DNA from: Dehalococcoidia bacterium
Lineage (GTDB): Bacteria > Chloroflexota > Dehalococcoidia > Lucifugimonadales > UBA3495
Length of the DNA stretch: 64,000 nt
Reading direction: 5' to 3'
NCBI GenBank assembly: GCA_965207275.1
Contig: CBDBMH010000002.1
Coordinates: forward strand, 465,291 to 529,290
Shown here: positions 3,408-35,042 of the stretch, piece after piece
How the letters are laid out: the number at the start of each line of letters is the position of its first letter
Numbering within the stretch: position 1 is the stretch's first letter
Made by a program: the position numbers and the translations under genes
Notes under the pieces: generated by a model
Seen by the model: the letters and a program-made list of their open reading frames with translations, nothing else
Database searches by the model: none
Told to the model about the DNA's origin: nothing

Positions 3408-4724
3408 TCAGGCCGGCGGTATCTGTCCCCAAAGGGGATGGCGGAAAGTGGGCGCCAGGGCGGGGTTCATATTCTCACGCCGGCGTGGGGGCGCCGCCAG
3501 TTCCTGGTCTTCCGTATGTGCCGCGAACCGCGACCGCCGGTAGGCGGCGGCCGGCTGCTTCCTTAGGGGCAGGCTGTTGAGGTGGCGCGCCAGGGATTCC
3601 AGGCTGTTCAGGTTGTGAACCGGCAGGAAGTCGTCCAGGTAAGGGAGCGCTGCCTGCATTCCCTGGGTCAGCGGCTGGTAATTGGGTGACCCCAGCAAAG
3701 GGTTCAACCAGATGAGTCGATGGCAACTGCGCTGCAGCCTCGACATTTCCCGGGACAGCAGTTCGGGTTCGCCCCGGTCCCAGCCGTCCGAAATAACCAG
3801 CACTACCGGTCCGTTGCCCAATGTCCGCCTTGCCCACCCGTAGTTGAAGGCCTTGACAGCCTCGCCGATGCGGGTGCCGCCGGCCCAGTCGGGCACGGCC
3901 CTGGCTACCTCGTTCACCGCCTGGTCAACGCCCCGGTGGTTCAGGTACCGGGTTATCCTTGTCAGACGGGTAGCAAACAGGAAGGCCTCAACCCGTCCCA
4001 GATCCCCGTCAATGGTGTGGATAAAGTGCAATAGCAGGCGGGTGTAACGCTCCATGGACCCGCTCACGTCGCATATCAGCACCAGGGGACGGGTCTTCTC
4101 TCTCGGCTGTCGGCGCGACAGGTCCAGCAGTTCTCCGCCGTACTTCAGGTTGTCGCGGAAGGTTCGCCGCCAGTCCAGGGCGTCACCGTCACCCACCTGG
4201 GTACGCCGCGTTCTGCGCTTCCCCAGGTCCCAGGACAGTTCCGACATCATGGAACGGGCCTGGGCAATTTCGCCGTGAGTATAGTCCGCGAAATCCTTGT
4301 GCCGCAGCACCTCCCGGGCGCTGTAGGTCTGGCTCATGTCTATGCCCGGCATTCCTTCGGGCATGTCTCCCACCGGGTCCCCACCTTCATCGTCTCCCGT
4401 GATTGGGGGGCCAACCTGGGGATTTCGGTACCGGCGCTCCTCTCCCATGCTGCGCAGGTCTCTGGTGCTGATGCCGTGGGCCGGCCGCCGCCAGAAAATC
4501 TGGAAGGCGTCGTCAAACAGGGGAAAGTCCTGCTTGCGATGGACCAGCAGGCAGCGGGCGGCGTGCCGGAAATCTTGTCTGCGCCCGATGGGAATGGTCT
4601 CGGTGGCCCGCACCAGGCCCATCATGTTGCCCGAGCCGAAGTCCAGCCCCAGCCGCCGCAGCGTCTCTCCGAAGAGCATCAGGTTATGAAGGATGTGACC
4701 TTCAGATTCCTGTTCAGCGGTCAT
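3408..4724 (-). CDS. VWA domain protein (CoxE-like partner of MoxR ATPase)
   Basis: 438-aa ORF with the MIDAS-type motif 'LICDVSGSM' and 'VISDGWDRG'. It sits 110 bp downstream of the MoxR-like ATPase on the same strand. Confidence 0.8.
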   Translation of the reverse strand: MTAEQESEGHILHNLMLFGETLRRLGLDFGSGNMMGLVRATETIPIGRRQDFRHAARCLLVHRKQDFPLFDDAFQIFWRRPAHGISTRDLRSMGEERRYRNPQVGPPITGDDEGGDPVGDMPEGMPGIDMSQTYSAREVLRHKDFADYTHGEIAQARSMMSELSWDLGKRRTRRTQVGDGDALDWRRTFRDNLKYGGELLDLSRRQPREKTRPLVLICDVSGSMERYTRLLLHFIHTIDGDLGRVEAFLFATRLTRITRYLNHRGVDQAVNEVARAVPDWAGGTRIGEAVKAFNYGWARRTLGNGPVVLVISDGWDRGEPELLSREMSRLQRSCHRLIWLNPLLGSPNYQPLTQGMQAALPYLDDFLPVHNLNSLESLARHLNSLPLRKQPAAAYRRSRFAAHTEDQELAAPPRRRENMNPALAPTFRHPLWGQIPPA

Positions 4725-4833
4725 GGCCTGGCAACTCTAGGAACGTATATATGGATAGCGGTGGGAAACCTGGGTTCGCCGCGTGAAACTAAGTAAGTCC
4801 TGTACATCCCGTGCTTCAATGCTTGAATCACTT

Positions 4834-5769
4834 CTAACCGCGCCGTCCACCCCGTCGGGGGCCCCGGTTCAGGGAGCGCTCCAGGATATTCCGCACCGGT
4901 TCGCCCCGCACCACCTCAATATCGTCCTGGTACTTCAGCATAATTCCCAGGGTATCGTCTATCACCTCGGCGTCCAGTTCCGTCTGGTTCAGGGCCAGCA
5001 GCGCTGATGTCCAGTCAATTGTCTCCGAAACGCCGGGTATTTTGTACAATTCCGTCTCCCGCAGTTCCTGTATGAAGCCCGTAACCTGCTGGGCCAATCT
5101 GCGGGGAGCGTCGGGCAGTTTGGCGCTGACTATCTGCAGTTCCTTCTGGTAGTCCGGGTAGTCTATCCAGTAGTACAGGCACCGGCGTTTCAGGGCGTCG
5201 TGTATCTCCCTTGTCCGGTTGGACGTGATGATGACGACGGGCGGGTGGGCGGCCCGGTACGTTCCCAGTTCCGGGATGGTTATCTGGAAGTCTGCCAGCA
5301 TCTCCAGCAGAAAACCCTCGAACTCCTCGTCAGCCCGGTCCAGTTCGTCGATGAGCAGCACCGGCGATTTTTCCCGGCTCTCGTCAATGGCCTGCAGCAG
5401 GGGCCGTTTGACCAGGAACCGTTCGCTGAACAGGTCGTCGGTTGCCGACTGCCGGTCAACGTCCCCTGCCGCTTCCAACAGCCGGATTTCCAGCATCTGG
5501 CGAGTATGGTTCCACTCGTAGACTGCATGGTTGACATCCAGCCCCTCGTAGCACTGCAGGCGGATTAGCTCGGTGTCCAGGCCCCTGGCCAGGGAGCGGG
5601 CGATTTCGGTCTTGCCCACCCCGGCCTCTCCTTCCAGGAACAGGGGGCGTTGCAGCGTCAATGCCAGGTAAATGGCTACGGCAAGGCCCCGGTCAGTGAC
5701 ATATTGCTGGTTGCGCAGCAGGTTCTGGACCTGATCTATGGATGTGGGCAGGGATTTAGTCGTCGTCAA
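4834..5769 (-). CDS. MoxR-like AAA+ ATPase (CoxD-like)
   Basis: 311-aa ORF with Walker A 'GEAGVGKTE' and Walker B 'VLLIDELDRA'. The start is TTG, with GGAGAG upstream. Confidence 0.85.
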   Translation of the reverse strand: MTTTKSLPTSIDQVQNLLRNQQYVTDRGLAVAIYLALTLQRPLFLEGEAGVGKTEIARSLARGLDTELIRLQCYEGLDVNHAVYEWNHTRQMLEIRLLEAAGDVDRQSATDDLFSERFLVKRPLLQAIDESREKSPVLLIDELDRADEEFEGFLLEMLADFQITIPELGTYRAAHPPVVIITSNRTREIHDALKRRCLYYWIDYPDYQKELQIVSAKLPDAPRRLAQQVTGFIQELRETELYKIPGVSETIDWTSALLALNQTELDAEVIDDTLGIMLKYQDDIEVVRGEPVRNILERSLNRGPRRGGRRG

Positions 5770-7392: not shown

Positions 7393-8151
7393 TTACTGGC
7401 GATGGGCCGGCGACCCGACGCACGCTTCAATGGCCGCTTCCCACTCATCCAAGTCAAAGAAGTGGGGGCCAGCCCCGCCGCGATAGGCCACCCGGCCGTC
7501 GGTTCCCATCAGGTAAAGCCGCTCCGGCGCCGCTCCGTAGGCTTCGTCAACCGCGTTGTCCATTTCCTCAATCAGGACGGGCAAACCAATGTGCAGGTCA
7601 ATACTGCAAGCCTGGGCCACGTCCTCCCGTTCCTCGTAGCTCCGGTGTTGGCGGAAAAGGACGCCTTCCTGGATATTGCTGTCCGTTTGCCATCCGTCAG
7701 TGGGGTGGGCCTCCTGGACATACACCACAAAGAACTCCACCCGGTCCTGGTACCGGTTAAAGACTTCCGTCATGCGCTCAGACTGGGCGCGGAAGGGCGG
7801 TCAAGTATAGCTCCCAAAGGCCAGGGCCACCGGCCGCTTGCCCCTGAATTCCGACAGGCGCACCCGCTCCTCAGATCCCAGTCGCTTCAGGTTAAAGTCG
7901 TCGGGAAATTCGCCAACCCTGGGCCCGGTCTCGTCCCGCGCCAAGGTGGCTTCCAGGGCCCGGCGGACTTCTTCCGGCAGTTCATCCTGCCAGCCTTCCA
8001 GGATTTGTCTGACCGTAATCCGACCCTCGGCCGCCGCAAGGTCGGGGCTGCCGCCCCTGGTTTCCTTGATGGCGCCAATTATCCGGCGCATTGTCTGCCG
8101 GTCAGCGTCGCTCAGCCCGCTGACTGCGCTGTCTCGCTGGGACTTCAGCAT
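7393..8151 (-). CDS. iodothyronine-deiodinase-like thioredoxin-fold protein, probable selenoprotein (in-frame UGA at 7801-7803)
   Basis: Track ORFs 7801..8265 and 7393..7773 are in the same frame and joined through TGA, giving '...RPVALAFGSYT-U-PPFRAQSERMTEVFNRYQDRVEFFVVYVQEAHPTDGWQ'. This matches the deiodinase active-site context FGSxT-U-PPF. A hairpin lies at 7764-7795, just 3' of the UGA. The start is placed at ATG 8151, preceded by GGGAGG. Confidence 0.7.
7764..7795 (-). promoter_or_regulatory. candidate bacterial SECIS hairpin
   Basis: mRNA reads UGA-CCGCC-[CUUCC GCGC (CCAGUCUGA) GCGC AUGAC GGAAG]. It has a 5-bp lower stem, a 5-nt 3' bulge, a 4-bp upper stem and a 9-nt loop containing GU. 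It starts 6 nt after the UGA. Confidence 0.45.
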
Positions 8152-8210
8152 AACGACCTCCCGGTATCCACTGGATCCGGTATCCACCGGATATGAAACC
8201 TCTGAACCAG

Positions 8211-8254
8211 TCCCTTCCCCTTTTGTTGGGGGAAGGTCAGGATGGGGTGAAAGC
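8211..8254 (+). repeat. family-1 repeat copy
   Basis: TCCCTTCCCCTTTTGTTGGGGGAAGGTCAGGATGGGGTGAAAGC. It lies in the non-coding 5' extension of track ORF 7801..8265. Confidence 0.8.
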
Positions 8255-8292
8255 GCGATGATCACTCTTTGCCTTGGATGGACGCTTCCGGC

Positions 8293-9399
8293 CTACTCCA
8301 CCTGCACGTCCACCGGGAACACCATGTTATTGCCATACCCCCGGCCGTCCCACTGGTTGGGGAACTCCATAGGCTGGGTCTCGCCCAGGTTGTTGGTGGC
8401 GCGGGACATCAACGTATGTCGCCCCGGTCCCTTCGGCCGCCACTGATACTGCCAACGGAACCAGGCGTAGGAGCTGGCGCGGGGCGCCAGGGTGGCCAGG
8501 TCCCAGGTCTTCCCGCCGTCGGTGCTGACCTCTACCTTCACCACCTCTTCCTCTCCCGACCAGGCGGCGCCGGCCAGGGTGTAGCCGCCCACCGGGACAG
8601 TCTCTCCGGGCGCCGGACTGGTGATGATGGACTTGACCTTCATCTTGGTATGGTAGGTGTAGTACTCCGGGCTGTCCGGGCCGTTCTGGGTCATGTACCG
8701 TTCCGACTGGTAAAAGCCGTCAAACTTCTTGTCCAGTACGTGGATGCCCACCAGCCATTTGACCGAGTTCATCCCGTACCAGCCCGGCACCACCAGCCGC
8801 AGCGGGTAGCCGTGGTTCAGGGGCAGCGGTTCGCCGTTCATCTCGTAGGCCAGCATGGTGTCGGGATGCAGAGCCTTGGCGATGGGCAGGCTGCGCTCGT
8901 AAGTAACTTCCGGGGGATCGCCCACCGTTTCGTCGGGACCGTGGTCGGCGCCCTCGAACATTACCTCCACGGCTGAGGCCTTGACGCCGGCCCGCGCCAG
9001 CAGGTCCTTCAGGGAAATGCCGGCCCACTCGGCGTTGCCCATAATGCCGTGGCCCTTGATCATTTCCATGACCGAACCCGTGCGGGTGGCCTTGGCCCAG
9101 TAGTCGGGCACCGGGCTGTTGCCGCAGCATTCAAATGTGACCTGGAAACGCTGTTGGGCCATTCCCAGGACCTCGTCGAAGGACAGGCTCAGGGGCGTTT
9201 CCACTTCGCCGTCCACCACCAGCCGGTAGGTATTGATGTCAATTTCGGGGCAGTCGGTCCAGTGGTTGCGGATATAGAACAGGTCGTTGGGAACTACTTC
9301 CTGCTGCAGGGCCTCGGGCGGCGCCGCCCAGGTGCGGTACCCGGCGTTGGTGGGAATCAGCTGGGGCTTGATCTCGGTTCGCAAGCTTCGGGTTGCCAT
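8293..9399 (-). CDS. sulfite-oxidase-family molybdopterin oxidoreductase
   Basis: 'LFYIRNHW' and 'TFECCGNSP' (Moco cysteine-ligand context), followed by a dimerisation-domain-like C-terminus. The start is taken at the second ATG (9399), which has a perfect AGGAGG 6 nt upstream. Confidence 0.8.
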   Translation of the reverse strand: MATRSLRTEIKPQLIPTNAGYRTWAAPPEALQQEVVPNDLFYIRNHWTDCPEIDINTYRLVVDGEVETPLSLSFDEVLGMAQQRFQVTFECCGNSPVPDYWAKATRTGSVMEMIKGHGIMGNAEWAGISLKDLLARAGVKASAVEVMFEGADHGPDETVGDPPEVTYERSLPIAKALHPDTMLAYEMNGEPLPLNHGYPLRLVVPGWYGMNSVKWLVGIHVLDKKFDGFYQSERYMTQNGPDSPEYYTYHTKMKVKSIITSPAPGETVPVGGYTLAGAAWSGEEEVVKVEVSTDGGKTWDLATLAPRASSYAWFRWQYQWRPKGPGRHTLMSRATNNLGETQPMEFPNQWDGRGYGNNMVFPVDVQVE

Positions 9400-9509
9400 T
9401 CTCGGCCTCCTGAAAGGGGGTTGCATGAGGTAGACCTGAACGCTGAAATCACAAACAGGCGGAGACTACTTGTGACTAATTTAACACAGAGTTAGCAGAA
9501 GTCGCAGAC

Positions 9510-9860
9510 TTATTCCAGGTACTCGGTGTCCTGATCCGTCGTGGGATACATTACCAGCAGCCGGACGGGGATCCACAGCTTGTTGACCAGCTTGTGGGGC
9601 ACGTGCGGCGGAGCGAACAGGGTACAGCCGGCCCGCACCGTTTGCAGTTCGTCCCCGATGATCAGCTGCACCGCCCCGGCCAGCACCATTATGGCCTCGT
9701 CGGTAGAGTGGGTATGCAGCCGTCCCTCCCAGCCAGGATGTAACTCGACCTCTTTAACCGTCAGGGAGACTGCGCCCTGGTCAGCAGAAACAAAGGTGCG
9801 TTCAGCCTTGTACTCCACTGGCGCCGGCATCCTGACGGTACTGTGTTCGATGATGGGCAT
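9510..9860 (-). CDS. cupin domain protein
   Basis: 116-aa ORF with 'GWEGRLHTHSTDEAIMVLAG...LFAPPHVPH', a two-motif cupin metal-site pattern. Confidence 0.75.
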   Translation of the reverse strand: MPIIEHSTVRMPAPVEYKAERTFVSADQGAVSLTVKEVELHPGWEGRLHTHSTDEAIMVLAGAVQLIIGDELQTVRAGCTLFAPPHVPHKLVNKLWIPVRLLVMYPTTDQDTEYLE

Positions 9861-10029
9861 TAGTATTCCTCAGAATCTCCAGGATGTAGTTTCTCCCTCT
9901 TCAGAAGAGCCCCGCTAAGCATCATTGCGCCTTCCACCCGGAACAGGGTAAGGCCGGAAACGGGGAGACAGTTCCTCCAAAAGCCTCCGACGGAACCGGG
10001 AAGCTCATTGAACCGGCGGTACCAGCAAA

Positions 10030-11622
10030 TCAGGCCTCAGTGTACTTCTCCCCCAGCGCCGTCTCCCACCTCAGGTAATTCATCATGTCGGCATAGTTCC
10101 GGTCCGGGCCGCTGGCCACCAGGTCGGTGGGCGGACTCATAACTCCCGAAAGCCCCGTTTCCACCGCCAGGCCGGCCGCCCTCCAGGCATTCATTCCCCC
10201 GGCCAGCACCGTAACGTCGGCATATCCCAGTCCCCGCAGAGTGGCTGCCGCAAAAACCGAGTTCTGCCCGTCGCGGCAGGTAACCGTAACCGGCGCCGCC
10301 TTGTCCGGCGCCAGGGCGCTGACCTGCAGTTCCAGCCAACCCCTGGACACCCAGCGCGCTCCAGGCACGTGACCCTGGGCAAAATCGCCGCTGGTATCCA
10401 CGAAAATAATTGCGGAATTGGTGGTAGCCGCCCGCCCCCGCTCCAGTTCCTTTAACGAAATTTCCCTGGCCTGGGCTTTGGCATCCTCCATGCCCAGGAC
10501 CGGCTCCGCCGGAGCGCCGGTTTCCACGTCCAGCCCGGCGGCGGCCCAGGCCCCTACCCCACCGGCCACGGCGTACACCTCTTCGTGGCCCAGTTGGCGG
10601 TACCACGATGCGGTAAGGGTGGCCCGCACCTTGTCATCGCACGCAAATATAATGGGCGTGTTCCTGACCACCGCCACTTCGTCGGAACGCTGCACCGCCT
10701 GTCCGCCGGGGAACCACCGGAAGCCCGGAATATGGCCCTCGGTGTACTCCGCGGTTGTGCGCACGTCCACAAAATAGACGGTCTCAGCCTTGCTTCGTTC
10801 CATCATCTCCTGCAGACCCGGAATGTCCAGGTAGCGTACGCCGTCCTCCTCTGCTAGCCGGTCGGCGTAGGCCTCGGCCTCCGCCAGGCCCTCGGCGGAG
10901 GGCTGGGGCAGCTGAACCCGGTCCGCTCCGGATTCCAGATCGTAACCGGCCAATACCCAGCCCGACGTCCCATTCTTCAGTCCAAAGACGTTCTGGCGGC
11001 CCATGCGCTGCAGGACCCGGGTGCCGATAATGCTGCGGGTGCGTCCCGCGCAGTTCACGATCACCGTGGTATCCGGGTCCAGTTCCGCAGTGATGTCGGT
11101 GATACGCAGGGCCAGTTCGCCTCCGGGAACGCTCCGTCCCCCGGGGATGCAGAACCGGCGATACTCTTCCGGTGTGCGAGTATCCAATATAACCAGCTTG
11201 TCGCCCCGCTCAATGCGTTCGTGCAGGTCGGCGGCGTCAATCTCCGGCACGTGGTGGACCACCTCCATCCTCTCGCCGAAGTCCTTGCTGGGCACGTTGA
11301 CACCCCACTCGGTAGGGTAGTCCAGGCTGGCCCAGCGGTTAATGCCCCCTTCCAGCACCGATACGTTGGAATACCCCAATCCCTTCAGCGTACCGGCGGC
11401 CAACGCCGCCCGCCGGCCGTCGTCGTCGCACAGGATGATGTGGGCTCCGAGGTGGGGCGCCGACGCAGCGATACGGAACTCCAGCTCCCTGCGGGGTATC
11501 AGGCTGGAACCCGGTATGTGGGTGCTGTTGTATTCGCCGGCCTCGCGCACGTCGATCAGGGCGAATGATTCGTTGCCCTCCAGCAGGGAGGCAACAGCCT
11601 CGGCGGAGACTTGCTGGGACAT
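10030..11622 (-). CDS. four-domain rhodanese (sulfurtransferase) protein
   Basis: 530-aa ORF with four tandem rhodanese-like modules. The active-site Cys loops are 'CDDGRRA', 'CAGRTRS', 'CDDKVRA' and 'CRDGQNS'. Confidence 0.85.
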   Translation of the reverse strand: MSQQVSAEAVASLLEGNESFALIDVREAGEYNSTHIPGSSLIPRRELEFRIAASAPHLGAHIILCDDDGRRAALAAGTLKGLGYSNVSVLEGGINRWASLDYPTEWGVNVPSKDFGERMEVVHHVPEIDAADLHERIERGDKLVILDTRTPEEYRRFCIPGGRSVPGGELALRITDITAELDPDTTVIVNCAGRTRSIIGTRVLQRMGRQNVFGLKNGTSGWVLAGYDLESGADRVQLPQPSAEGLAEAEAYADRLAEEDGVRYLDIPGLQEMMERSKAETVYFVDVRTTAEYTEGHIPGFRWFPGGQAVQRSDEVAVVRNTPIIFACDDKVRATLTASWYRQLGHEEVYAVAGGVGAWAAAGLDVETGAPAEPVLGMEDAKAQAREISLKELERGRAATTNSAIIFVDTSGDFAQGHVPGARWVSRGWLELQVSALAPDKAAPVTVTCRDGQNSVFAAATLRGLGYADVTVLAGGMNAWRAAGLAVETGLSGVMSPPTDLVASGPDRNYADMMNYLRWETALGEKYTEA

Positions 11623-11864
11623 ATTCTGTTCACCTCAACCTGTCTGATACTAAGTAGTCCCCCGTGCGCCCCTGGCGGGGATTCAGGGGGACTACGCTTG
11701 AATGCCTGAGGAAGCTCTGAACGACTCCTCTACCTTCTCGATCTTATAAGCTTCGAGGCTGTACCGAACTGGATTCGGGGATGGGGCAGGCCATCAATCA
11801 GCCGCTTCCGTCGCCCGCGCCGGCGCCGCTCTATCTCCGCTTCGAGTCTATTTCCCGACTCCGT

Positions 11865-12449
11865 CTAGCAATTGTCGTACTTCTCAGTTGCAAAGGGCGT
11901 AATCTTTCCCGTCTCCAGGTTATAGCGGCAGCGGTTCAGGCCCCGCAAGTCGTCGCCGTAAACGTGGATTTCCACGGTGGGGCGATCGGTAAAGTTGTCC
12001 ATCTGGTGAATCTCGTCCACTTCGGGAATGAGGAGCGTGATCTCGCCCGAGGTGAACTCCACGCTGCGGTCCCTTTCCAGCCTGGCGTAACCCTCCACGG
12101 ACCGGTCGTCCACCCGCCGGAATCGGGTCTCGGTCAAGTGGTCGCCCATCACCCCGATCATGCCCCACGTGCCGTGGTCATGGGGCGACGCGTGGTCGCC
12201 GGGGCCCCAAACCACCGACGTTATCAGCAGCCCGCTGTCACCCTGATAGAGGGCATAGGAGCCGTGGTTGCTGCGGGCGCCCCGTCCCACCGGCTCCAGG
12301 TACTGCTGGGGAATGGCGGCGGGATTGGCAATCAGCTTCTCCAAGTACGAAGATCCGTGGTCGAAAATGTGGTGCTGGCCGGGTTGCTCCTTCAGCAGCG
12401 CCTCCATGTCATGAATGAATTCGTCCAGCGAATACTTGACAGTAGCCAT
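11865..12449 (-). CDS. cysteine-dioxygenase-like cupin (DSBH metalloenzyme)
   Basis: 'SPHDHGTWGMIGVMGDHLTETRF' and 'IHQM' match type-I CDO-like cupins. The start is at ATG 12449, preceded by AGGAGGG. Confidence 0.65.
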   Translation of the reverse strand: MATVKYSLDEFIHDMEALLKEQPGQHHIFDHGSSYLEKLIANPAAIPQQYLEPVGRGARSNHGSYALYQGDSGLLITSVVWGPGDHASPHDHGTWGMIGVMGDHLTETRFRRVDDRSVEGYARLERDRSVEFTSGEITLLIPEVDEIHQMDNFTDRPTVEIHVYGDDLRGLNRCRYNLETGKITPFATEKYDNC

Positions 12450-12755
12450 GGACACCCTCCTGAGAAACCCTGGCAAAGAAGCTGGCAACGCCCATTTCGG
12501 TGTGGATCAGATAGCGGTTACGGGCATTATGGTATTGGCGTATATTGATGTCAAGGAAAAAGACTTGACGGCAGCCTTCGGTTCCAGGTGGCTTGCGGCG
12601 GGTAGGGGCGAGTTTCAAACTCGCCTTTGCCATGCCCCAAGCGCTCTTGCCAGCCAATGCCACCTGAAAGGGAAAGCTAACCGGCTAAAGCCCATTCTGG
12701 ACTCTCCTCACTCCCCTAACCTATAATTTCTGCAGCCTCGTCAGGAGTTACCGCT

Positions 12756-17795: not shown

Positions 17796-20282
17796 ATCAT
17801 TAACGCAAACGGTTACCCCATTTCAGGAGATGACGTAGCCCTTTTCATCGACTGGGAAAACTTCAAGATCAGCCTGGCCGCGGGCAGCAGGACGCCAAAC
17901 GTCAGCGCCCTTAAAGAGGAGGTTTCCAACCACGGGAGGGTGGTGGTGGCCAAGGCCTACGCTGACTGGGTTACCAGGTCTCCCGAACTAAAAGGCGCCA
18001 GCCAATTTATCATTGACCCTCCTGCCCTTTACGCCGCCGGTATCGAACCGGTGTACGTGCCCACCCGCCTTCCGCTGGGAAGTCCCTCCGCCATGAACAC
18101 CAGGACCACGCGGGTCAAGAACAGCGTGGACGTGAAGATGACGGCGGACTGCATCGAGTGCGCCCATACCTATCCCAACATCGGCACTTATGTGCTGGTT
18201 TCCGGCGATTCCGACTTCATCCACGTCATCAATTCCCTGCGGGCCATCGGCAAGCGCGTCATCATCATCGGCGTATCGTGGAGCACATCCCGCCGCCTGG
18301 CCGACCAGGTGGACGGGCTGATTCTCTACGATATCGACGTTGATCCCGAGCACCTGCCCGAACCGGAGCCCACGCCTGCTTCCACCGAACGCTCGTCCAG
18401 GTCCAACGGTGGCAATCGCCAGCAGCTGTCCGAGGTGATGCGTCAGATCGAGGAAATCGTCCGCTCCGAACGGCAGGCCGGACGCACCCCACTGTTGACT
18501 TCCCTCAAGCAGCGCATTATGCGCCGCGTGCCCGGGTTCGACGAGAAAAAGCTGGGATTTTCCGGGTTCAAGAAGCTGATGCTCCGCACTGCCGAGGAAG
18601 GCACCATCAAGCTGGTAACGGTGGGTCTGGTGGACTGGGTGATCATGGCCGACGAGCCCGACCCGGTAGAGGCCCACTCCGAACCCGGCTCCGACCGGGG
18701 ATCGGTGGAAACGGTGGCCGCGGACGAGGAAGTAGTTCTCGATGACCAGTCCCGGTCTGAACCCACCGCAGTCGTCGAAACTGCCGCCGAGTCCGACAGT
18801 GCGGTGTCGGATGTGGAGACAACCTCCACCGAAGCCGCCGGGCAGCCGGCCGAAGCTGGCGAAACGGATATAACGCCGGAGACCCTTGTCGCAGCAGAAA
18901 CCTCGTCCGAATCCGATTCCCTAACTGTGGAACTCCCGACTGAAACGGAAGCCTCAAGCGATGCCGGGGAATCGGAAGCTATGGATGAGGTTGCTCCTCC
19001 TGCCCTGTCTCCGGAACTGGCCACGGCGCTGGAGGAAACCCTGGCGCACCTGGAATTGCCCCGGGGACCGGGCGATGGTCAGGACGGACGGCGCATCAAT
19101 GACCTGGTCATCATGGCCGATATGCTGGAGCACCAGGCGGGCATTACCCACGTGGCCTTCAACTTCCTGCTGGCCCAAATCTGCGAAGCTCTCCACCAGG
19201 GCCTGGAAGCGGAGCACCCGGAAATAACCGGACGCTGGGGCGGGCGCACCTACTCCCGCACCTACGTAACCCGCCTCCTCCGTGAGCTGGGCGACAAGGA
19301 AATTTTCCTCCGGGACTGGCATCAGGAGCGGAACGAGGAAACCGGTCGCACCAGTCGCTTCCGTACCTTCAACCTCAACCGTACTCATCCCCTGGTCCGG
19401 GAAGCGCTGATCAGCCAGTGGGGGCCTGACACCAACACCGGGGCCCACGAGCCGGAGGTTGCGGTGGAAGAGGCGCCGGAAGCGCCCCCGGAAATGGAGA
19501 CGTCGGACCAACTGACAGCGCCCACCGGCGAAGTTGCGATGGAGGAGACGGTGGAGGAGGAAACTCCTGCGCCACCTGCCCGAACCGCTCGCCGGCGGGG
19601 AGGTCGGCGTCAATCCGTCAGCGAAGCCACAGAAACATCTGACCAGGCTGTTTCTGAAGCCGAGGCGCCGGAGTCCGTGGCGGACGAGGCTGTGGCCGCG
19701 CCGCCCGCGCGACCGTCCCGGCGTCGTGGCCGTCAACTCCAAACCGCCGAAGACGTCCCGCAAACCTCGGAGCAGGCTCCGGAGCAACCCGGCGCCGAAG
19801 AAGCCGAGCCGGGAGAGTCCGAAGTGGTGGAGGCTGCGCCCGCGCGCCCGTCTCGTCGCCGTGGCCGCCAACGCCAGACCGCCGAAGAGGTCCCGCAAAC
19901 CCCGGAACAGGCTTCGGAGCAACCAAGCGCCGAGGAAGCCGGGTCGGGAGAGTCCGAGGTAGTGGAAGGTGCGCCCGCACGACCATCCCGGCGCCGTGGC
20001 CGTCAACGCCAGACCGCCGAAGATGTCCCGCAAACCCCGGAACAGGTTTCTGACCCGTCCGAGGCAGGGGCATCAGATCTGGGAGGATCCGAAGTGGTGG
20101 AGACACCGCCCGCGCGCCCGTCTCGCCGCCGTGGTCGTCAGCGCCAAACCGCCGAGGAGGTTTCGCCATCCTCGGAACAGGTCGCTGGCCCGTCCGAGGC
20201 AGGGGCATCAGAGTCGGCCATTGCGGCCGTGGTGGAAGACCCAGTCCCGGATGCCGAACCGGCCCCGGCCGCGGTGGATTAG
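17796..20282 (+). CDS. NYN (PIN-like RNase) domain plus OST-HTH/LOTUS domain protein with a repetitive acidic/basic C-terminus
   Basis: The frame is open from 17763. 'DDVALFIDWENFKISL...AKAYADW...LVSGDSDFIHVINSLR' is the NYN/LabA pattern. 'LKQRIMRRVPGFDEKKLGFSGFKKLMLRTAEEGTIKL' is LOTUS-like. The conserved NYN N-terminus lies upstream of the first ATG/GTG/TTG (17940), so the real start is probably non-canonical (ATC 17796 or ATT 17799, after AGGAG 17781-17785). The start coordinate is uncertain. Confidence 0.75.
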   Translation: MINANGYPISGDDVALFIDWENFKISLAAGSRTPNVSALKEEVSNHGRVVVAKAYADWVTRSPELKGASQFIIDPPALYAAGIEPVYVPTRLPLGSPSAMNTRTTRVKNSVDVKMTADCIECAHTYPNIGTYVLVSGDSDFIHVINSLRAIGKRVIIIGVSWSTSRRLADQVDGLILYDIDVDPEHLPEPEPTPASTERSSRSNGGNRQQLSEVMRQIEEIVRSERQAGRTPLLTSLKQRIMRRVPGFDEKKLGFSGFKKLMLRTAEEGTIKLVTVGLVDWVIMADEPDPVEAHSEPGSDRGSVETVAADEEVVLDDQSRSEPTAVVETAAESDSAVSDVETTSTEAAGQPAEAGETDITPETLVAAETSSESDSLTVELPTETEASSDAGESEAMDEVAPPALSPELATALEETLAHLELPRGPGDGQDGRRINDLVIMADMLEHQAGITHVAFNFLLAQICEALHQGLEAEHPEITGRWGGRTYSRTYVTRLLRELGDKEIFLRDWHQERNEETGRTSRFRTFNLNRTHPLVREALISQWGPDTNTGAHEPEVAVEEAPEAPPEMETSDQLTAPTGEVAMEETVEEETPAPPARTARRRGGRRQSVSEATETSDQAVSEAEAPESVADEAVAAPPARPSRRRGRQLQTAEDVPQTSEQAPEQPGAEEAEPGESEVVEAAPARPSRRRGRQRQTAEEVPQTPEQASEQPSAEEAGSGESEVVEGAPARPSRRRGRQRQTAEDVPQTPEQVSDPSEAGASDLGGSEVVETPPARPSRRRGRQRQTAEEVSPSSEQVAGPSEAGASESAIAAVVEDPVPDAEPAPAAVD
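19566..20240 (+). repeat. five tandem 135-bp coding repeats (45-aa units 'PARPSRRRGRQRQTAEEVPQTPEQ...SEVVE')
   Basis: Unit starts are at 19566, 19701, 19836, 19971 and 20106, an exact 135-bp period. The inner copies are nearly identical at DNA level. Confidence 0.9.
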
Positions 20283-27864: not shown

Positions 27865-28157
27865 CACCTTCTCAGCTCTTCAAAGTCCTTGCGCAGAAGA
27901 CGTGGGGCAACCCCTACTGACGGTGGCTTCGTGATGGCGTTCGGGTCATCGATGGAGGCGTGGGGCCGAACCGTCGTTCTCCCGAAGGCTGGTACCTCCA
28001 ACCTGGGGCAAACGGGTTCCCGCCTCCGCTGAAAGATTAAGCTGATGCGTTCCACCATATCCAATTAACCGGGAACAGCCGCCCCGACCATTTAAGGCCG
28101 GGGTGTTTTGCTATAGAATCCCCACTGAAATTTCAAGCTGGTGAACGGAGGGTGCTT

Positions 28158-29168
28158 ATGACCGCATATCAGCCCCAGCGCATCGACTCCCATGCGCATA
28201 TCGTCCCGCCAGAACTGATCGACGAAGCCCGGAGGTCCGGCGCCACCCTGGGCGTTACCGTTGAGGACACGGACCGGGGACCGGCCCTGCAGTTTGAAGG
28301 CCTGGTCCACCTACGCCCCATCGGCGGCCTGGCCCATTTGGAACCCCGCCTGGAATGGATGGACCAACAGGGGCTGACCCTTCAGATTCTCGGCTCCTGG
28401 CTAGACATCCAGGGCTATACCCTCTCCCCCGGCAATGCCGCTACCTGGGCCCGGCTCTTCAACGAACACCTGGCCGAATTGGTGGGGACCCACCCGGGCC
28501 GCTTTGCCGCTCTGGCTACCGTGCCCGTGCAGGACGGCGCCCTGGCCGCCCGGGAGCTGGAGTACGCCGTCGACGAACTGGGCATGCTGGGGGTAACGCT
28601 GGCCGCCGACCCTGCGGAACAGGACCTGGCCAGGGACAGTTTCGAACCCCTGTGGGACGCCGCCGAAGCCCTGGACGTCCCCATAGTTATGCACCCGCCT
28701 ACCCACGGCTTTGGCGCCAGCATCCGCCCGTCCTACCTGGCCTTTTCCCTGGGCCGCACCCTGGACACCACCATCACCACCGCCAAGCTCATCCTTGGAG
28801 GCCTGTTTGACCGCCACCCGGATCTCAAAATGATGCTGGTCCACGGGGGCGGGTATCTCCCTTACCAGGCAGCCCGCATTGACGACGGTTACCTGGGCGG
28901 AAACGGCCGTCCGGTGGAATTGCGGCGCGACCGGCCCTCTGACTACCTGCCCCTGCTTTACTACGATAACGTGGCCGTGTCTGCCCCGGCCCTGCGCCTG
29001 ATGCGCGACATAGCCGGCGCTGACCACCTGCTGCTGGGCTCCGACTACGTTTTCGCCGGTTCGAGATCGCCCATTGCCGCCAATATCGAGAATGCGGGTT
29101 TTGCTGCCGAGCACGTGGACCTGATCTGTTGCGGCAACGCCCAACGATTGTTCCTGAACGAAGAATAG
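28158..29168 (+). CDS. amidohydrolase-2 family enzyme (ACMSD/LigW-type decarboxylase/hydratase)
   Basis: 'RIDSHAHIVP' (HxH metal site), 'PIVMHP' and 'LLLGSDY' fit the amidohydrolase_2 pattern. Confidence 0.8.
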   Translation: MTAYQPQRIDSHAHIVPPELIDEARRSGATLGVTVEDTDRGPALQFEGLVHLRPIGGLAHLEPRLEWMDQQGLTLQILGSWLDIQGYTLSPGNAATWARLFNEHLAELVGTHPGRFAALATVPVQDGALAARELEYAVDELGMLGVTLAADPAEQDLARDSFEPLWDAAEALDVPIVMHPPTHGFGASIRPSYLAFSLGRTLDTTITTAKLILGGLFDRHPDLKMMLVHGGGYLPYQAARIDDGYLGGNGRPVELRRDRPSDYLPLLYYDNVAVSAPALRLMRDIAGADHLLLGSDYVFAGSRSPIAANIENAGFAAEHVDLICCGNAQRLFLNEE

Positions 29169-29207
29169 CCCAAAACCATATCTCGCAAGTCGCGGAGGAC
29201 AAGTCCC

Positions 29208-30020
29208 ATGATGATAATCGACACTCACAGCCACGCCGGGGTCAACTGGTTTGAGCCGGTGGAGACCACCCTCCACCAGATGAACGTGAACGGCGTTCAG
29301 AAGACCGCGCTAATCCAGCACGCGGGCAACTACCACAACGACTATTTGTTGGAGTGTGTCAAGCGTTTCCCGGGCCGCTTTGGCGCCGTGGTCTGGGTGG
29401 ACGTGACCGACCCCAACGCCCCGGATACCTTGGAGAGTTTGGCCCAGCATGAAGAGGTTATCGCGGTGCGGTTGCACCCTTACGAACGCTCTCCTGGACC
29501 CGACCCCCTGGCCATCTGGCGCAAGGCCTCCGACCTCCGGCTACCCGTGAGTTGTTACGCTCGCAGCGCGGCCCAGGCGGCTGAACCGGGGTTCCAGGCC
29601 ATCGTGGAGCAGTTCCCCAACCTGACCGTCATCCTCGAGCACTTGGCCGGAGCGTACCGGCCCCAGAGTCCGGAGTCCGTCACGCCGCCATACGAACACT
29701 ACCGGGCGGCGCTTACCCTGGCTCGTTTCCCCAACACTTTCATCAAATTCGGCGGCCTGGGTGAGTTCTGCGTCCGTCCCCGTCCCCTGGCAGCCCACTT
29801 TATGTTTGATGAGGTACCCCCTCTGGTGGACATGGCCTACGAGGCCTTTGGCCCGGAGCGGATGATGTGGGGCAGCGACTTCCCCCCGGTAGGTGGCCGG
29901 GAAGGCTACCGTAACTCCCTGGAAGCCCTGAAAGAGTATCCCTGTTTCAAGAACCAGGATGAAAGGGAGTGGGTATTCGGCAAATCCGCCCGGGCCGCCT
30001 TCCGCTGGCCGCAGCCGTAA
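29208..30020 (+). CDS. amidohydrolase-2 family enzyme
   Basis: 'MMIIDTHSHAG', 'ILEHLAG' and 'MMWGSDFP'. GGAGGA lies upstream. Confidence 0.8.
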   Translation: MMIIDTHSHAGVNWFEPVETTLHQMNVNGVQKTALIQHAGNYHNDYLLECVKRFPGRFGAVVWVDVTDPNAPDTLESLAQHEEVIAVRLHPYERSPGPDPLAIWRKASDLRLPVSCYARSAAQAAEPGFQAIVEQFPNLTVILEHLAGAYRPQSPESVTPPYEHYRAALTLARFPNTFIKFGGLGEFCVRPRPLAAHFMFDEVPPLVDMAYEAFGPERMMWGSDFPPVGGREGYRNSLEALKEYPCFKNQDEREWVFGKSARAAFRWPQP

Positions 30021-30298: not shown

Positions 30299-30349
30299 TA
30301 GCCCCAAGACTTGACCGTAGGTTCAAGACAATCAAAGGGAGGAGTAGCT

Positions 30350-31621
30350 ATGCTCAAAATCGGACATGAGGTTGTTCGACCCGGCAAGAACGTGGGCGAC
30401 GCCCCCGTAACTATCCCCGTACCCGAAGAACTGGAAACCGTTCCTGGTATTCCCAAGGTTCAGCGTGAAGTCGACTGGTACGCACGGGAATATCCAGTGG
30501 AGACCATGAATATCACCGAGCGCGCTTCCCGCGACTGGGCCAACGCCATTCGCGACCAGCACGTCGAAATGCGTGAGATCCGCAAGGAGCATGACAAGCT
30601 CAACCGCTCCCTGATCATGGGCGCCCGCCTCACCGGCGATCTCGAGCCCAGCGCTGAGCCCACCGGCGAAGATGTCAGCGAACTGATCAAGGCCAAGGCC
30701 CGTGAACTGGGTTACGTCGAAGTCGGAATCACCGCTTACGACCCCCATTACACGTACCAGAGCAAGAAGGACTGGGTGAAATTCCCCCACGTCGTCTGCC
30801 TGGCCTACGAGCAGGACTTCGAGCCCACCCAGACCATCCCCAGCGTTGACGCCGAGATCGTGCACTCCAGCACCTATCGGACCGAAGGCGCTGCCGGCCT
30901 GGAGCTCGGCAACTATATCCGCAGCCTTGGCTACCGCGCCCAGGTTCACAGTCCCAACGACAACACCGGCCCTTACATTCCCATGTTCGTGTCTGCCGGT
31001 ACCGGCCAGTTGGGCGCTTGCGGCTACCTGCTGACCCCCCACGTCGGCTCCCGCTGCCGCATCATGATGATCACCACCGACGCCAACGTCACTTATGATC
31101 AGCCGGTGGACTACGGCATCCACGCCTTCTGCCAGGTGTGCCAGGTCTGCGTGAACCGCTGCCCGGGCCGCGCCCTGATGCGCGACAAGATCTGGTGGCG
31201 GGGAATTGAGAAGAACAAGCTCTACTTCAAGCGCTGCCGCCCCGTCATGGCCCGCTACCTGGGCTGCGGCATCTGCATGAAGGTTTGCCCCATCCAGAAG
31301 TACGGCCTCCAGAACGTCATGGAGCACTATGCCGAGACCGGTCAGGTACTGGGCAAGGGCACCCACGACCTCGAAGGTTACACCCTGGAAGGCAAGGGCT
31401 ACTTCGGCCCCGGCGAAATGCCGGTCTTCGATGCCGGTTTCTTCGAAATGCCTCAGGGCGACACCGAAGAGTGGGCTTTCACCGAGTTCAAGAAGGAAGC
31501 CATGGCCAACGGCGGAACCATCACCGACGACATGATCGAGAAGTTCCGCACCGAGGTCGCCCGTGGTCTGTCCCAGAGCCGGGACAACATGGGCATGATG
31601 GAGGAAGAGGACTACATCTAG
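30350..31621 (+). CDS. reductive dehalogenase / epoxyqueuosine-reductase superfamily Fe-S protein (cytoplasmic RdhA-like)
   Basis: Two Fe-S motifs in RdhA arrangement: 'CQVCQVCVNRCP' (CxxCxxCxxxCP) and 'CGICMKVCP' (CxxCxxxCP). They are preceded by 'GQLGACGYLLTPHVGSRCRIMMITTD'. I see no twin-arginine signal and no adjacent rdhB-like anchor. ATG 30350 follows GGGAGGAG. Confidence 0.7.
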   Translation: MLKIGHEVVRPGKNVGDAPVTIPVPEELETVPGIPKVQREVDWYAREYPVETMNITERASRDWANAIRDQHVEMREIRKEHDKLNRSLIMGARLTGDLEPSAEPTGEDVSELIKAKARELGYVEVGITAYDPHYTYQSKKDWVKFPHVVCLAYEQDFEPTQTIPSVDAEIVHSSTYRTEGAAGLELGNYIRSLGYRAQVHSPNDNTGPYIPMFVSAGTGQLGACGYLLTPHVGSRCRIMMITTDANVTYDQPVDYGIHAFCQVCQVCVNRCPGRALMRDKIWWRGIEKNKLYFKRCRPVMARYLGCGICMKVCPIQKYGLQNVMEHYAETGQVLGKGTHDLEGYTLEGKGYFGPGEMPVFDAGFFEMPQGDTEEWAFTEFKKEAMANGGTITDDMIEKFRTEVARGLSQSRDNMGMMEEEDYI

Positions 31622-32280: not shown

Positions 32281-34098
32281 ATGAGCAGGTTGAACGTATC
32301 GAACCGCACGTTGGCGATTATGGACAACCTGGCCTTCCTACGGTCCTTGAACAACGAGTGCATCGACCTGATTGCCATAGACCCGCCTTTCGCGGCAAAT
32401 GAGACCTTTACCAGCAGGCCCCGTCCGCCCATCAGCAGGAAGGAACTTGCCGAGGAAAAGGCCCTGGCCAAGTCTCACAAGGCGGCCCACAACGAAGGCA
32501 TAGGGGAATCCAGGGTCAAGGACTACTGGAACTGGGATGATGACGTTCACCCGGACTGGAAGGCCCGCATAGAAGATGATTACCCCAGAGTCTTTGCGGT
32601 GGTTCAGGCGGTCGAGGCTTGCGCCACGGAGAACGAGGCCGCCTACATCTGCTTCATGGCTACCCGGCTGATTGAGTGCCGGCGGGTCTTGAAGACTACG
32701 GGCAGCATCTACGTTCACTGCGATCATCACGCCAATAGCTACCTTCGGATGCTGCTGGATGCCATCTTCGGGGCGGAGAACTTCCGCAGCGCCATCACCT
32801 GGCGGCGGGCCACATCCCACAATGACGCGAAGGGTTACGGAAACATTACCGATACGCTGCTTTACTACTCGGTGTCCTCGGAATACGCCTGGAACGGGCA
32901 GGAAATCACCCAGCCCAAGACCGAGGAACAGTTGAAATCTGCCTATCCGCAAAAAGACGAAAACGGACCGGTCAGGTTCTCCGACCTGACCGGTGCCGGT
33001 GCCACCGACGGAGAGTCCGGGCAACCGTGGAAGGGCTATGACGTGGCTGCCAGGGGGCGTCATTGGGCGCCGCCAAAATCATCCGCCTATGCCTACTGGA
33101 TAGAGGAGCGATTCATCCCCGGTTACACCAGCTTGAGCAGCGTCCACGAGCGCCTTGACGCACTGGATGATGCTGGCCTGATTACCCACCCCAAGAAGGG
33201 CGTTTGGCCGGGGCTGAAACGATATGCTGCTGCCGACAAGGGGAATCCGCCGCAGAACCTGATCCTGGACCCTACCGGATTCACCAACTACAGCACCGGC
33301 GGCGGGGAGTTCGTCGGCTACTCTACCCAGAAGCCCCTGGCCCTCTATGAGCGGCTGATAAAGGCCAGCAGCAACCCCGGGGACGTGGTACTGGACATCT
33401 TCGCCGGTTGCGCCACCACTGCGGTTGCCGCTGAGAGCCTGAAGCGCAAGTGGATAGCTTGCGACATGGCCTATCGCTCCTGGACTATGCTCAAGCGACG
33501 GTTCTACCTGAATGGCTTTGCGCTGTCTGATATGACCGACTCCACGCGGGCGGTGCTGGGAGAGCATCAGACCAAGATGCAGCAGGCCCGGTCAAAGACC
33601 ATTGGCCCCAATGCCTTGCCCAAGCGCACCGACAAAGACCCTGCCCCTTTTCACCCTCTGGAGCAAGGACGGCGGGGAAGGCGCACTACCCAATCAGCCA
33701 GTTGGTCAGGGAGAATCCCAAAAGAGGAAGCTAAGAAGCTGCTGATTGAGCGGTTCGGCCCGGTCTGCTGGGGTTGCGGCTACGAACCGCGCCGGCCAAA
33801 TGGGAGCCTGGACGATACCCTGCTGGAAGTGGACCATATCCGCGCCCGGCGGTCCACCGAGGGAGCACAGGGGAACGATGAACTGTACAATTTGGCCCTG
33901 CTTCACCGGACCTGTAACGGAATCAAGCGGAACAAGCTGACCCTGGAAGAGTTGCGGAACGACAACGCGCTGAACGGGCGGCTGTACGTGGGTGGTTTGA
34001 CCGACTTGGTGGACCTGTACCTTGCACAGCAGTTTGCCCAGGAACAGATAGCGGCCCACGTCTTGAGACATGGGGTGCAACAGCCGATGGCGGTCTAA
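32281..34098 (+). CDS. N4/N6 DNA methyltransferase fused to a C-terminal HNH nuclease domain
   Basis: Motif IV 'LIAIDPPFAANETF' precedes motif I 'VLDIFAGCATTAVAAE', the beta-class order of the N6_N4_Mtase type. The C-terminal ~110 aa read 'CWGCGYEP...LEVDHIRARR...NLALLHRTCNGIKRNK', which is an HNH pattern. Confidence 0.85.
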   Translation: MSRLNVSNRTLAIMDNLAFLRSLNNECIDLIAIDPPFAANETFTSRPRPPISRKELAEEKALAKSHKAAHNEGIGESRVKDYWNWDDDVHPDWKARIEDDYPRVFAVVQAVEACATENEAAYICFMATRLIECRRVLKTTGSIYVHCDHHANSYLRMLLDAIFGAENFRSAITWRRATSHNDAKGYGNITDTLLYYSVSSEYAWNGQEITQPKTEEQLKSAYPQKDENGPVRFSDLTGAGATDGESGQPWKGYDVAARGRHWAPPKSSAYAYWIEERFIPGYTSLSSVHERLDALDDAGLITHPKKGVWPGLKRYAAADKGNPPQNLILDPTGFTNYSTGGGEFVGYSTQKPLALYERLIKASSNPGDVVLDIFAGCATTAVAAESLKRKWIACDMAYRSWTMLKRRFYLNGFALSDMTDSTRAVLGEHQTKMQQARSKTIGPNALPKRTDKDPAPFHPLEQGRRGRRTTQSASWSGRIPKEEAKKLLIERFGPVCWGCGYEPRRPNGSLDDTLLEVDHIRARRSTEGAQGNDELYNLALLHRTCNGIKRNKLTLEELRNDNALNGRLYVGGLTDLVDLYLAQQFAQEQIAAHVLRHGVQQPMAV

Positions 34099-35042
34099 CC
34101 TGCGTGGATGGCGAACACAGGGGCGGTCAGGTCCGCGTACCGGAGCCGCTTGCCGATGCAACCGCGCATCAGGGCCGCCATTTGGCTGAGAGTGTCGGCG
34201 GGCCGGTTGTTGTGGCGGCCCTCGAACTCATTGACGTAGCGCCCCAAGTGCTTGCCGCTCATCCAGTGGTAAATCCCGATGTAGCCGCGCTTGAGCATGG
34301 ACCAGAAGGATTCCATCCCGTTGGTATGGGCCATGTCCCTGACATACTCCCCAACGCTGTGCTTGACTGTTTCGTGGCGGCGGGGAAGGCCGGTGTACGC
34401 CGTGGCTTCGTCGGTGTAGACGATGGCCGTCGGTTCGGTCTTGCGCTGGACGATACCCTGGAGTGTGGATTTGTCGGTCTTTTCGACAACCTCGGCGTCA
34501 ACCTGGTTAGTCTCCCGGTCTTTGACACCGGCGACGGCGGTCTTCCCGACAGTACCACGCCCCGCCTTGAGTTTCTTGGATTCGTGCTTGTTCTTTTCCA
34601 GCCCGCCGATATAGGTCTCATCGGCTTCCACCGGCCCACTGAACACCGGATCGCCGCCGTCCATCGCTTCGCGGATCCGGTGGGCCAGGAACCAGGCGGA
34701 CTTTTGAGTAATACCCAAATCCCGGTGAAGTTTCATGGAGCTTACGCCCTTGAGATTGGTCAAAATCTGGTAGAAGGCAATGGCCCACTTGCGGAGGGGA
34801 ATATGGGAGGATTCCATGACCGTGCCGAGCTTCACCGAGAAGTAGGCGCGGCAATCGGAACACCAGTACGGCATTGGCTTGGCGTTGGGTACTTCGCTGG
34901 TGCGCTCACCGCCACAGCGGGCGCAAGTCCGGCCTTCCGGCCAGCGGATGGACTCGAACCAGTCGAGGGCGGTATCCTCGTCGGGGAACAGCTCCAGCAG
35001 TTCGATTATCCCGATTCCCTTGCGAAAACTCTTACCCGCCAT
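34095..35042 (-). CDS. IS1595-family transposase
   Basis: N-terminal zinc ribbon 'CARCGG...CSDCRAYFS', then a DDE region 'ETYIGG...VYTDEATAY...NGMESFWSMLKRG..H', the typical ISXO2-like layout. Confidence 0.9.
   Translation of the reverse strand: MAGKSFRKGIGIIELLELFPDEDTALDWFESIRWPEGRTCARCGGERTSEVPNAKPMPYWCSDCRAYFSVKLGTVMESSHIPLRKWAIAFYQILTNLKGVSSMKLHRDLGITQKSAWFLAHRIREAMDGGDPVFSGPVEADETYIGGLEKNKHESKKLKAGRGTVGKTAVAGVKDRETNQVDAEVVEKTDKSTLQGIVQRKTEPTAIVYTDEATAYTGLPRRHETVKHSVGEYVRDMAHTNGMESFWSMLKRGYIGIYHWMSGKHLGRYVNEFEGRHNNRPADTLSQMAALMRGCIGKRLRYADLTAPVFAIHAG

Follow-up and report, generated by a model that had tools for sequence, protein, structure and literature searches.

A deiodinase-family gene of a Dehalococcoidia bacterium, split by gene calling at a probable selenocysteine UGA codon

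The present analysis concerns a 64,000-nucleotide stretch of the genome of a Dehalococcoidia bacterium (contig CBDBMH010000002.1, positions 465,291 to 529,290; hereafter the window, in whose own numbering all positions are given) and, within it, a minus-strand gene that appears as two open reading frames (ORFs). Our data make it very probable that positions 7393-8151 form one gene encoding a 252-residue protein of the iodothyronine deiodinase family, with a thioredoxin/peroxiredoxin-like fold and with selenocysteine (Sec) as catalytic residue 117, inserted by recoding of an in-frame UGA. An earlier note on this DNA had read the two ORFs as a single gene split by ORF calling at a Sec-UGA, with a selenocysteine insertion sequence (SECIS) just downstream, and this reading is supported. 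The family itself is not new, since it was published in 2005, and the gene of the window is an additional, mis-annotated member. The elements of the gene are the following.

7393..8151, minus strand: complete coding sequence of the probable deiodinase-like selenoprotein, 252 codons and a TAA stop (7393-7395), codon 117 being UGA (Sec); based on the sequence, its translation, PF00837 and the matches to animal deiodinases (Dio)
8157..8162, minus strand: Shine-Dalgarno-like GGGAGG, 5 nt upstream of ATG 8149-8151; read directly from the sequence, its function being presumed
7801..7803, minus strand: in-frame UGA, the probable Sec residue 117 of the motif FGSYT-U-PPF; TGA in 82/82 related loci, Cys in full-length homologues
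7606..7812, minus strand: codons for the active-site and proton-relay residues as in animal deiodinases (Ser114, Thr116, Sec117, Tyr144, Glu147, His149, His166) and for the clade-conserved Cys182; from the Dio3/Dio2 alignment and PMC11592359
7774..7790, minus strand: conserved core of the candidate SECIS, a hairpin of 17 nt spanning +14 to +30, counted from the U of the UGA; from comparative pairing and RNAalifold
7764..7795, minus strand: extended bulged hairpin of the earlier note, with a lower stem pairing 7791-7795 with 7764-7768; foldable in the window (-10.4 kcal/mol), lower stem unconserved

The minus-strand ORFs 7801..8265 and 7393..7773 lie in one frame, as the earlier note had stated, and are separated in the window sequence by the TGA at 7801-7803 and nine sense codons (CCG CCC TTC CGC GCC CAG TCT GAG CGC). 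Reading through gives ...RPVALAFGSYT*PPFRAQSERMTEVFNRYQDRVEFFVVYVQEAHPTDGW... The mechanically called start of the upstream ORF, a GTG at 8265, is probably not the true one. On sequence grounds the likely start is ATG 8149-8151, because GGGAGG is found 5 nt upstream of it and because this methionine (residue 1) is where the alignment with homologues of dozens of genomes begins. A scan for promoters and terminators yielded no signal above background.

Profile and sequence searches were performed with the joined halves, U being replaced by C. Across the junction, residues 93-242 of the joined protein aligned with positions 89-234 of the 237 in the T4_deiodinase profile (PF00837). The score of 112.6 bits (cut-off 27; E = 2.4e-32) is well outside what chance would give, and in this search, which the earlier note had proposed as a check, it was far above those of peroxiredoxin models. 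Weaker, secondary Pfam matches were obtained to AhpC-TSA (PF00578; 29.2 bits, cut-off 26) and Redoxin; the former lies beneath the much stronger PF00837 match, and the motif S-x-T-U has Ser, not Thr, at position -3. The best sequence matches in the PDB were mouse Dio3 (4tr3; E = 8e-27) and Dio2 (9h48; E = 1.6e-20). In these alignments FGSYT-UGA-PPF stands opposite FGSCTCPPF of Dio3 and FGSATCPPF of Dio2, both crystallised as Sec-to-Cys mutants. The combination of FGSxT-U-PPF and a following EAHPxDGW-type segment had been correctly recognised in the earlier note as a deiodinase signature. The NCBIfam model NF038285 (deiodinase_rel) reached 191.8 bits, below its cut-off of 250, and was covered at profile positions 172-340 of 347 only. 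The protein of the window, which lacks the N-terminal half of that model, thus belongs to a different subfamily; as no NCBIfam threshold was reached, no curated model provides it with a name or a Sec flag.

Structural comparison was based on an AlphaFold2 model of P0001, a natural Cys orthologue that is 60% identical to the protein of the window (predicted local distance difference test score 93.5). Its top Foldseek matches were the catalytic cores of Dio2 (9h48) and Dio3 (4tr3), with E-values of about 1e-11, target-normalised TM-scores of 0.81 and 0.75, and 26-29% identity. The next neighbours were ResA/TlpA-type oxidoreductases and the 1-Cys peroxiredoxin AhpE. The model places the active-site Cys/Sec where helix 112-128, the first one of the thioredoxin fold, begins, between strand 102-107 and the remainder of the domain. 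Neither half-ORF would be a complete thioredoxin fold according to this model, and neither would be able to fold alone, which agrees with what had been claimed for the gene without recoding. In both the model and the translation, the first ~80 residues make up a soluble segment of four helices with no hydrophobic membrane anchor, and the protein is probably soluble and cytoplasmic.

Scanning one genome per GTDB species gave 596 relatives, of which the best 80 loci were kept; together with L001 and L002, two contigs on which the same ORF is split by an in-frame TGA, they form a set of 82 loci. TGA was found at codon 117 in all 82. Most of these loci belong to Dehalococcoidia/SAR202/Chloroflexota metagenome-assembled genomes (MAGs), several of them with sponge-associated names, and the remaining ones to Entotheonella, Deltaproteobacteria, Myxococcota, Thermodesulfobacteriota, Binatia, Acidiferrales and Phycisphaeraceae. 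Compared with the window, the proteins were ~45-89% identical on either side of the codon, the closest relative among the loci being the Dehalococcoidia MAG chromosome OY761558.1 (87%). The window most likely derives, accordingly, from a Dehalococcoidia bacterium of the SAR202 type, and possibly from one living in sponges. Other homologues, full-length ones, have Cys at the same position (FGSYTCPPF; P0001, P0010, P0014, P0015, P0023 and others). When P0001 was compared with 1.84 billion representative proteins, 3736 clusters were matched with E <= 1e-3 and 1416 with E <= 1e-10; among the best 150 matches, most extended at full length through the Cys position and fewer began right after it, marking split Sec forms. 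Judged from these sequences, the deiodinase-like family is large and mostly of the Cys form; within it, Sec is used throughout in the 82 closest loci, mostly from SAR202/Dehalococcoidia. Some genomes were seen to hold several deiodinase-like selenoprotein genes, each with its TGA (L079/L080 from one genome; L038 and L067 from one MAG), and tandem pairs, ~770 nt apart, occur in L079 and L081 (positions 3133 and 3902 in each).

These data bear on three explanations that dispense with Sec. The UGA at 7801-7803 might terminate translation, leaving an N-terminal protein of 116 residues and possibly, from ATG 7773, a second one of 126 residues. Gene callers treat the sequence in this manner, and databases contain both at least one N-terminal fragment, P0022, which stops at ...FGSYT, and many 138-residue entries that correspond to the C-terminal half only, one of them an NCBI entry. 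The nine codons leading from the TGA to ATG 7773, however, encode PPFRAQSER, of which PPFR is invariant or nearly so, and in frame, in all relatives, while the ATG is missing at that point in many of them. Full-length Cys homologues exist, and the Cys-orthologue model leaves neither half with a complete thioredoxin fold. The frame stays conserved past the TGA, and among the homologues none was found to end here as a real short protein, such an ending being what the earlier note had named as evidence against its reading. Termination is therefore very improbable. A nonsense mutation (pseudogene) or an assembly or sequencing error would account for a single TGA, yet the codon is present in 82/82 independently assembled loci from several phyla, in an intact frame with 45-89% identity on both sides; we consider this explanation to be refuted by the comparative data, with next to no likelihood left. 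Reassignment of UGA to another amino acid (e.g. Trp or Gly), with no Sec involved, appears equally far-fetched, and nothing was found in its favour. TGA is the ordinary stop of 9/43 larger ORFs of the window, which indicates a standard genetic code; the homologous position is occupied by Cys, the residue that usually alternates with Sec; the codon is followed by a conserved hairpin; and a scan of the window for other long same-frame TGA read-throughs brought up no second convincing candidate that looks coding.

The hairpin was analysed in a gap-free alignment of 72 distinct 69-nt segments around the UGA. Its core begins 10 nt past the UGA and consists of a 6-bp stem and a 5-nt loop (5' arm 7785-7790, GCGCCC; loop 7780-7784, AGUCU; 3' arm 7774-7779, GAGCGC). 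The stem was paired in 94% of cells, versus 22-62% when the 3' partners were slid by 1-3 columns, and the same hairpin was predicted independently by RNAalifold. Pair 21-35 was never broken over the 72 sequences (CG 55, UA 16, UG 1), its switch being made of a synonymous CGC-to-CGU change coupled to an Arg-to-His change on the opposite arm. Pair 24-32 occurred as UA 32, CG 21, CA 17 and UG 2, the window having the CA form, and pair 22-34 changed from G-C to U-A in a single sequence. The loop consensus was AGKYN, with an invariant G at alignment column 27. As a small control, three more distant Cys-form genes kept 3, 5 and 2 of the six pairs, while 72/79 Sec forms had at least five; limited as it is, this sequence comparison points in the expected direction. 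Altogether, the hairpin at 7774-7790 fits a bacterial SECIS and can be regarded as a candidate element. The earlier note had drawn a longer bulged hairpin, 7764-7795. Its 17-nt apical part is the conserved and covarying one, whereas its lower stem (7791-7795 with 7764-7768) was paired in only 56% of cells across the 72 relatives; as a conserved part of the SECIS this lineage-specific stem was rejected. A search of the window with Rfam models gave no match to a SECIS family. In the distant PPFRHQ subclade (L076, L079-L082) the hairpin at +14 to +30 is out of register, and by eye a hairpin a few nucleotides further downstream (e.g. CCAGGC-CGUGC-GCCUGG) seems to be its replacement.

Several observations weigh against the recoding model. 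The fifth pair of the window's own hairpin is a C.A mismatch. The covariation partly tracks clade structure, and only about two to three independent switches can be counted. The folding of 7740-7810 that had been suggested as a check was unremarkable when the window was considered by itself (z = -0.44); as single-sequence folding is not significant, the support for the SECIS comes from comparison with relatives. Moreover, tblastn with the E. coli SelA, SelB and SelD queries detected no selA, selB or selD in the 64-kb window, and ARAGORN found no tRNA genes in it and hence no tRNA-Sec; nor was tRNA-Sec found by ARAGORN in 60 related loci. Published data on relatives point the other way. According to Slaby et al. 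2017 (PMC5649159), most bins of sponge symbionts contain SelA together with SelB, and Table S4 of that report lists SelA (COG1921), SelB (COG3276) and SelD (COG0709) with respective counts of 2, 1 and 1 for SAR202 bin22 (MPMM) and of 3, 1 and 1 for SAR202 bin87 (MPNC). These bins correspond to our loci L016 and L026, in which the orthologues carry both the TGA and the hairpin. We infer that the Sec machinery is present in the genome of the window as well. A SelA-similar pyridoxal phosphate enzyme of 380 residues is encoded right after the deiodinase-like gene in L013 (3911-5053, minus strand) and L018 (3479-4258, minus strand). It was rejected as a SelA candidate, being a generic enzyme of this type (Pfam SelA only 41 bits, Aminotran_5 45 bits).

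Expression of the gene can be pictured as follows. The ribosome would decode the UGA at 7801-7803 as Sec, the hairpin at 7774-7790 acting as the bacterial SECIS and presumably recruiting SelB with Sec-tRNA(Sec), and it is by stopping at this codon that gene callers would produce the two reported fragments. With regard to chemistry, a proton relay composed of Ser127, Thr129, Tyr157, Glu160, His162 and His182 has been proposed for Dio2 (PMC11592359). In the Dio alignment these residues correspond to Ser114, Thr116, Tyr144, Glu147, His149 and His166 of the window, all six being invariant or nearly so in the bacterial clade; the deiodinase-specific insertion EAHPxDGW...QHRSxEER is kept, and Cys182 is nearly invariant in the clade. 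The selenolate might accordingly be imagined to attack an electrophilic atom, most plausibly a halogen, on a small aromatic substrate, whose leaving carbon would be protonated by the Ser-Thr-Tyr-Glu-His-His relay; the Se-X intermediate could then be reduced by thiols, possibly via Cys182. We tentatively propose deiodinase-type selenolate chemistry on a small aromatic, probably halogenated, non-thyronine substrate, and would give this proposal somewhat less than an even chance. As the carboxylate clamp is absent, a thyronine amino acid is not expected to be the substrate.

This proposal meets with objections of its own. Arg275, the carboxylate clamp of Dio3, is replaced by Ala227 (GGRGP versus GGAGP), and Cys239 of Dio3 by Leu190. 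Neither Zhang et al. 2005 nor the 2022 and 2026 reviews contain biochemical data on bacterial members, in agreement with the earlier note, according to which the substrates of prokaryotic deiodinase-like selenoproteins are not established. Gene neighbourhoods vary by clade, and the neighbours in the window are related to sulfur metabolism, not to haloaromatic compounds. These neighbours include a run of genes on the minus strand, just upstream of the selenoprotein gene (8293-12488).

11865-12488, minus strand: cysteine-dioxygenase-like gene, upstream of the run; present in the window, outside the synteny of 14 relatives
10030-11622, minus strand: protein with four rhodanese domains; syntenic in 14 close relatives
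9510-9860, minus strand: cupin; syntenic in 14 close relatives
8293-9426, minus strand: sulfite-oxidase-like molybdoenzyme; syntenic in 14 close relatives

In the window and in 14 close relatives, the same-strand order is fourfold rhodanese, cupin, sulfite-oxidase-like molybdenum enzyme, deiodinase-like gene, cyclase, Ham1, MoxR-like AAA protein and CoxE-like VWA protein. This arrangement is one of the arguments for another possible function, in which the same recoded gene would encode a peroxiredoxin-like selenol peroxidase or a thiol-disulfide oxidoreductase, serving the sulfur-oxidation neighbours in the lineage of the window. All genes of the sulfur run except the cysteine-dioxygenase-like one are syntenic in the 14 relatives, and a redox role would be in line with the secondary matches to AhpC-TSA and Redoxin, with the ResA/TlpA-type oxidoreductases and AhpE that come next after Dio2 and Dio3 structurally, and with the redox role apart from thyroid-hormone metabolism that was suggested by the describers of the family (Zhang et al. 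2005). On the other hand, no peroxiredoxin model comes close to the score of PF00837, the deiodinase-specific insertion and the full proton relay are conserved, and the TxxC spacing of peroxiredoxins is replaced by S-x-T-U. The sulfur synteny is also confined to one shallow clade, and genes of the S-adenosylmethionine (SAM) cycle or dienelactone hydrolases are found elsewhere. A redox function can be considered a substantial possibility, about one to be expected in a minority of such cases.

The neighbourhoods of the other clades are of a different nature. In a second clade, the neighbours are S-adenosylhomocysteine hydrolase, SAM synthetase and phosphoglucomutase. Dienelactone-hydrolase genes (PF01738) adjoin the deiodinase-like gene on the same strand, downstream in 4 loci (L006, at 3957-4880, L011, L012 and L015) and upstream in 11 (L035, at 2033-2800, and ten more among L037-L053); the two groups of hydrolases are ~30% identical to each other, and the L006 copy has a signal resembling that of twin-arginine translocation (Tat). 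Cys-form genes are accompanied by a Rieske ring-hydroxylating oxygenase, luciferase-like monooxygenases, a DsbA-like gene and QueG/RdhA-like iron-sulfur (Fe-S) proteins that are 47% identical to one another (neighbourhood coordinates L089 4303-5346; L091 216-1331; L090 1063-2214). A neighbour common to all clades was looked for and none was found, three different synteny blocks being present. Gene context does not decide between a dehalogenase and a redox role.

The earlier note had also taken an RdhA-like gene in the same window as a hint of organohalide chemistry.

30311-31621, plus strand: Fe-S protein of the RdhA/QueG superfamily, 436 residues; TIGR02486 97 bits against a cut-off of 160, weak Fer4, no Tat motif

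This gene is situated 22 kb from the deiodinase-like gene and on the opposite strand, and no homologue of it was found in any fetched deiodinase-like locus. Being below the TIGR02486 cut-off and non-syntenic, it was rejected as functional evidence, and the hint is a thin one. Two amidohydrolase genes (28152-30020) lie just upstream of it.

Zhang, Fomenko and Gladyshev (2005, Genome Biol 6:R37) described Sec- and Cys-containing bacterial deiodinase-like proteins (PF00837) with a bacterial SECIS from the Sargasso Sea, and reviews of prokaryotic selenoproteomes from 2022 and 2026 list the family as uncharacterised. The gene of the window has in common with this family PF00837, a UGA with Cys homologues, a candidate SECIS of bacterial type immediately after it, whose small apical loop contains a G, and an occurrence among marine bacteria. 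The motif described in the reviews is UxxC, whereas the window has U-P-P-F with no Cys at +3, as in animal deiodinases. The assignment to SAR202/Dehalococcoidia and the presence of Sec in 82/82 loci come from the present analysis and not from these publications. With animal Dio1-3 the protein shares FGSxT-U-PPF with Sec, the insertion EAHPxDGW...QHRSxEER, the six relay residues and the fold. The membrane anchor of the animal enzymes is replaced here by a soluble four-helix N-terminal extension of ~80 residues; the carboxylate clamp, Arg275 in Dio3 and Lys241 in Dio2, is Ala, and Cys239 of Dio3 is Leu. Clamp and anchor are hallmarks of the thyroid-hormone enzymes of animals and do not belong to the definition of PF00837. 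The candidate SECIS is a bacterial coding-region hairpin, in contrast to the 3'-untranslated kink-turn element of animal Dio genes. The minimal SECIS of E. coli is a 17-nt upper stem-loop located 11 nt from the UGA, and it resembles the 17-nt core found here 10 nt after the UGA. In both fdhF of E. coli MG1655 and the window, a hairpin with G(U) in its loop comes directly after the UGA, and the position of the apical loop agrees within 2 nt (GGUC at +22 to +25 in fdhF, +20 to +24 here). The present element differs from that of fdhF in its 5-nt loop AGKYN instead of GGUC, in having no conserved bulged U and in its unconserved lower stem, and binding of SelB is in this case only predicted.

A bolder extension of the dehalogenation proposal can be formulated for the whole group. 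The deiodinase-like selenoenzymes of SAR202/Dehalococcoidia may be thiol-driven reductive dehalogenases of natural iodinated or brominated phenolics, such as sponge bromotyrosine metabolites or marine halophenols. We regard this as speculative and, as it stands, rather unlikely. Hints in its favour are the fully kept relay, the several or tandem gene copies, the dienelactone-hydrolase neighbours in two arrangements, the Rieske, luciferase-like and QueG/RdhA-like neighbours of the Cys forms, and the many sponge-associated MAG names. If it were true, a cobalamin-independent, selenium-based route of dehalogenation would exist in abundant marine bacteria, and it could represent the ancestral chemistry behind the thyroid-hormone deiodinases of animals. 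Since the relay is kept and the carboxylate clamp is not, the bacterial relatives are a natural place to ask what role deiodinase chemistry had before thyroid hormones, a question that dates from 2005. On the practical side, public records split or truncate the gene; once its halves are joined, a conserved selenoenzyme is recovered for a lineage that is very abundant in the ocean and associated with sponges; the SECIS alignment, with its 72 distinct sequences and covariation, could seed a model for finding and annotating the family.

Several other features of the window are worth recording. A 720-residue fusion (59769-61931, minus strand) combines an N-terminal GPP34 domain (Golgi phosphoprotein 3) with a cytochrome P450 domain, an unusual architecture for bacteria. 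The sole Rfam match in the window was a group II intron (RF00029; 51104-51202, plus strand; 45.8 bits over the full 77-position model), with no obvious reverse-transcriptase ORF adjacent to it and followed by a gene for a KshA-like Rieske oxygenase (51565-52686). A 780-residue ORF (17940-20282, plus strand) has an acidic C-terminal half with several near-identical repeats of the type PARPSRRRGRQRQTAEEVPQTPEQ. An 828-residue predicted lipoprotein (42910-45396, minus strand) contains long His/Asp/Glu-rich stretches (HDDHGDEHADEHGHEEHGHDEHGHEE) and, by eye, resembles a solute-binding protein of the ZnuA-like, metal-binding kind into which a large segment is inserted. Mobile elements are represented by a DNA methylase-HNH fusion (32281-34098), an IS1595-type transposase (34095-35042) and a DDE_Tnp_1_4 transposase (53032-54555).

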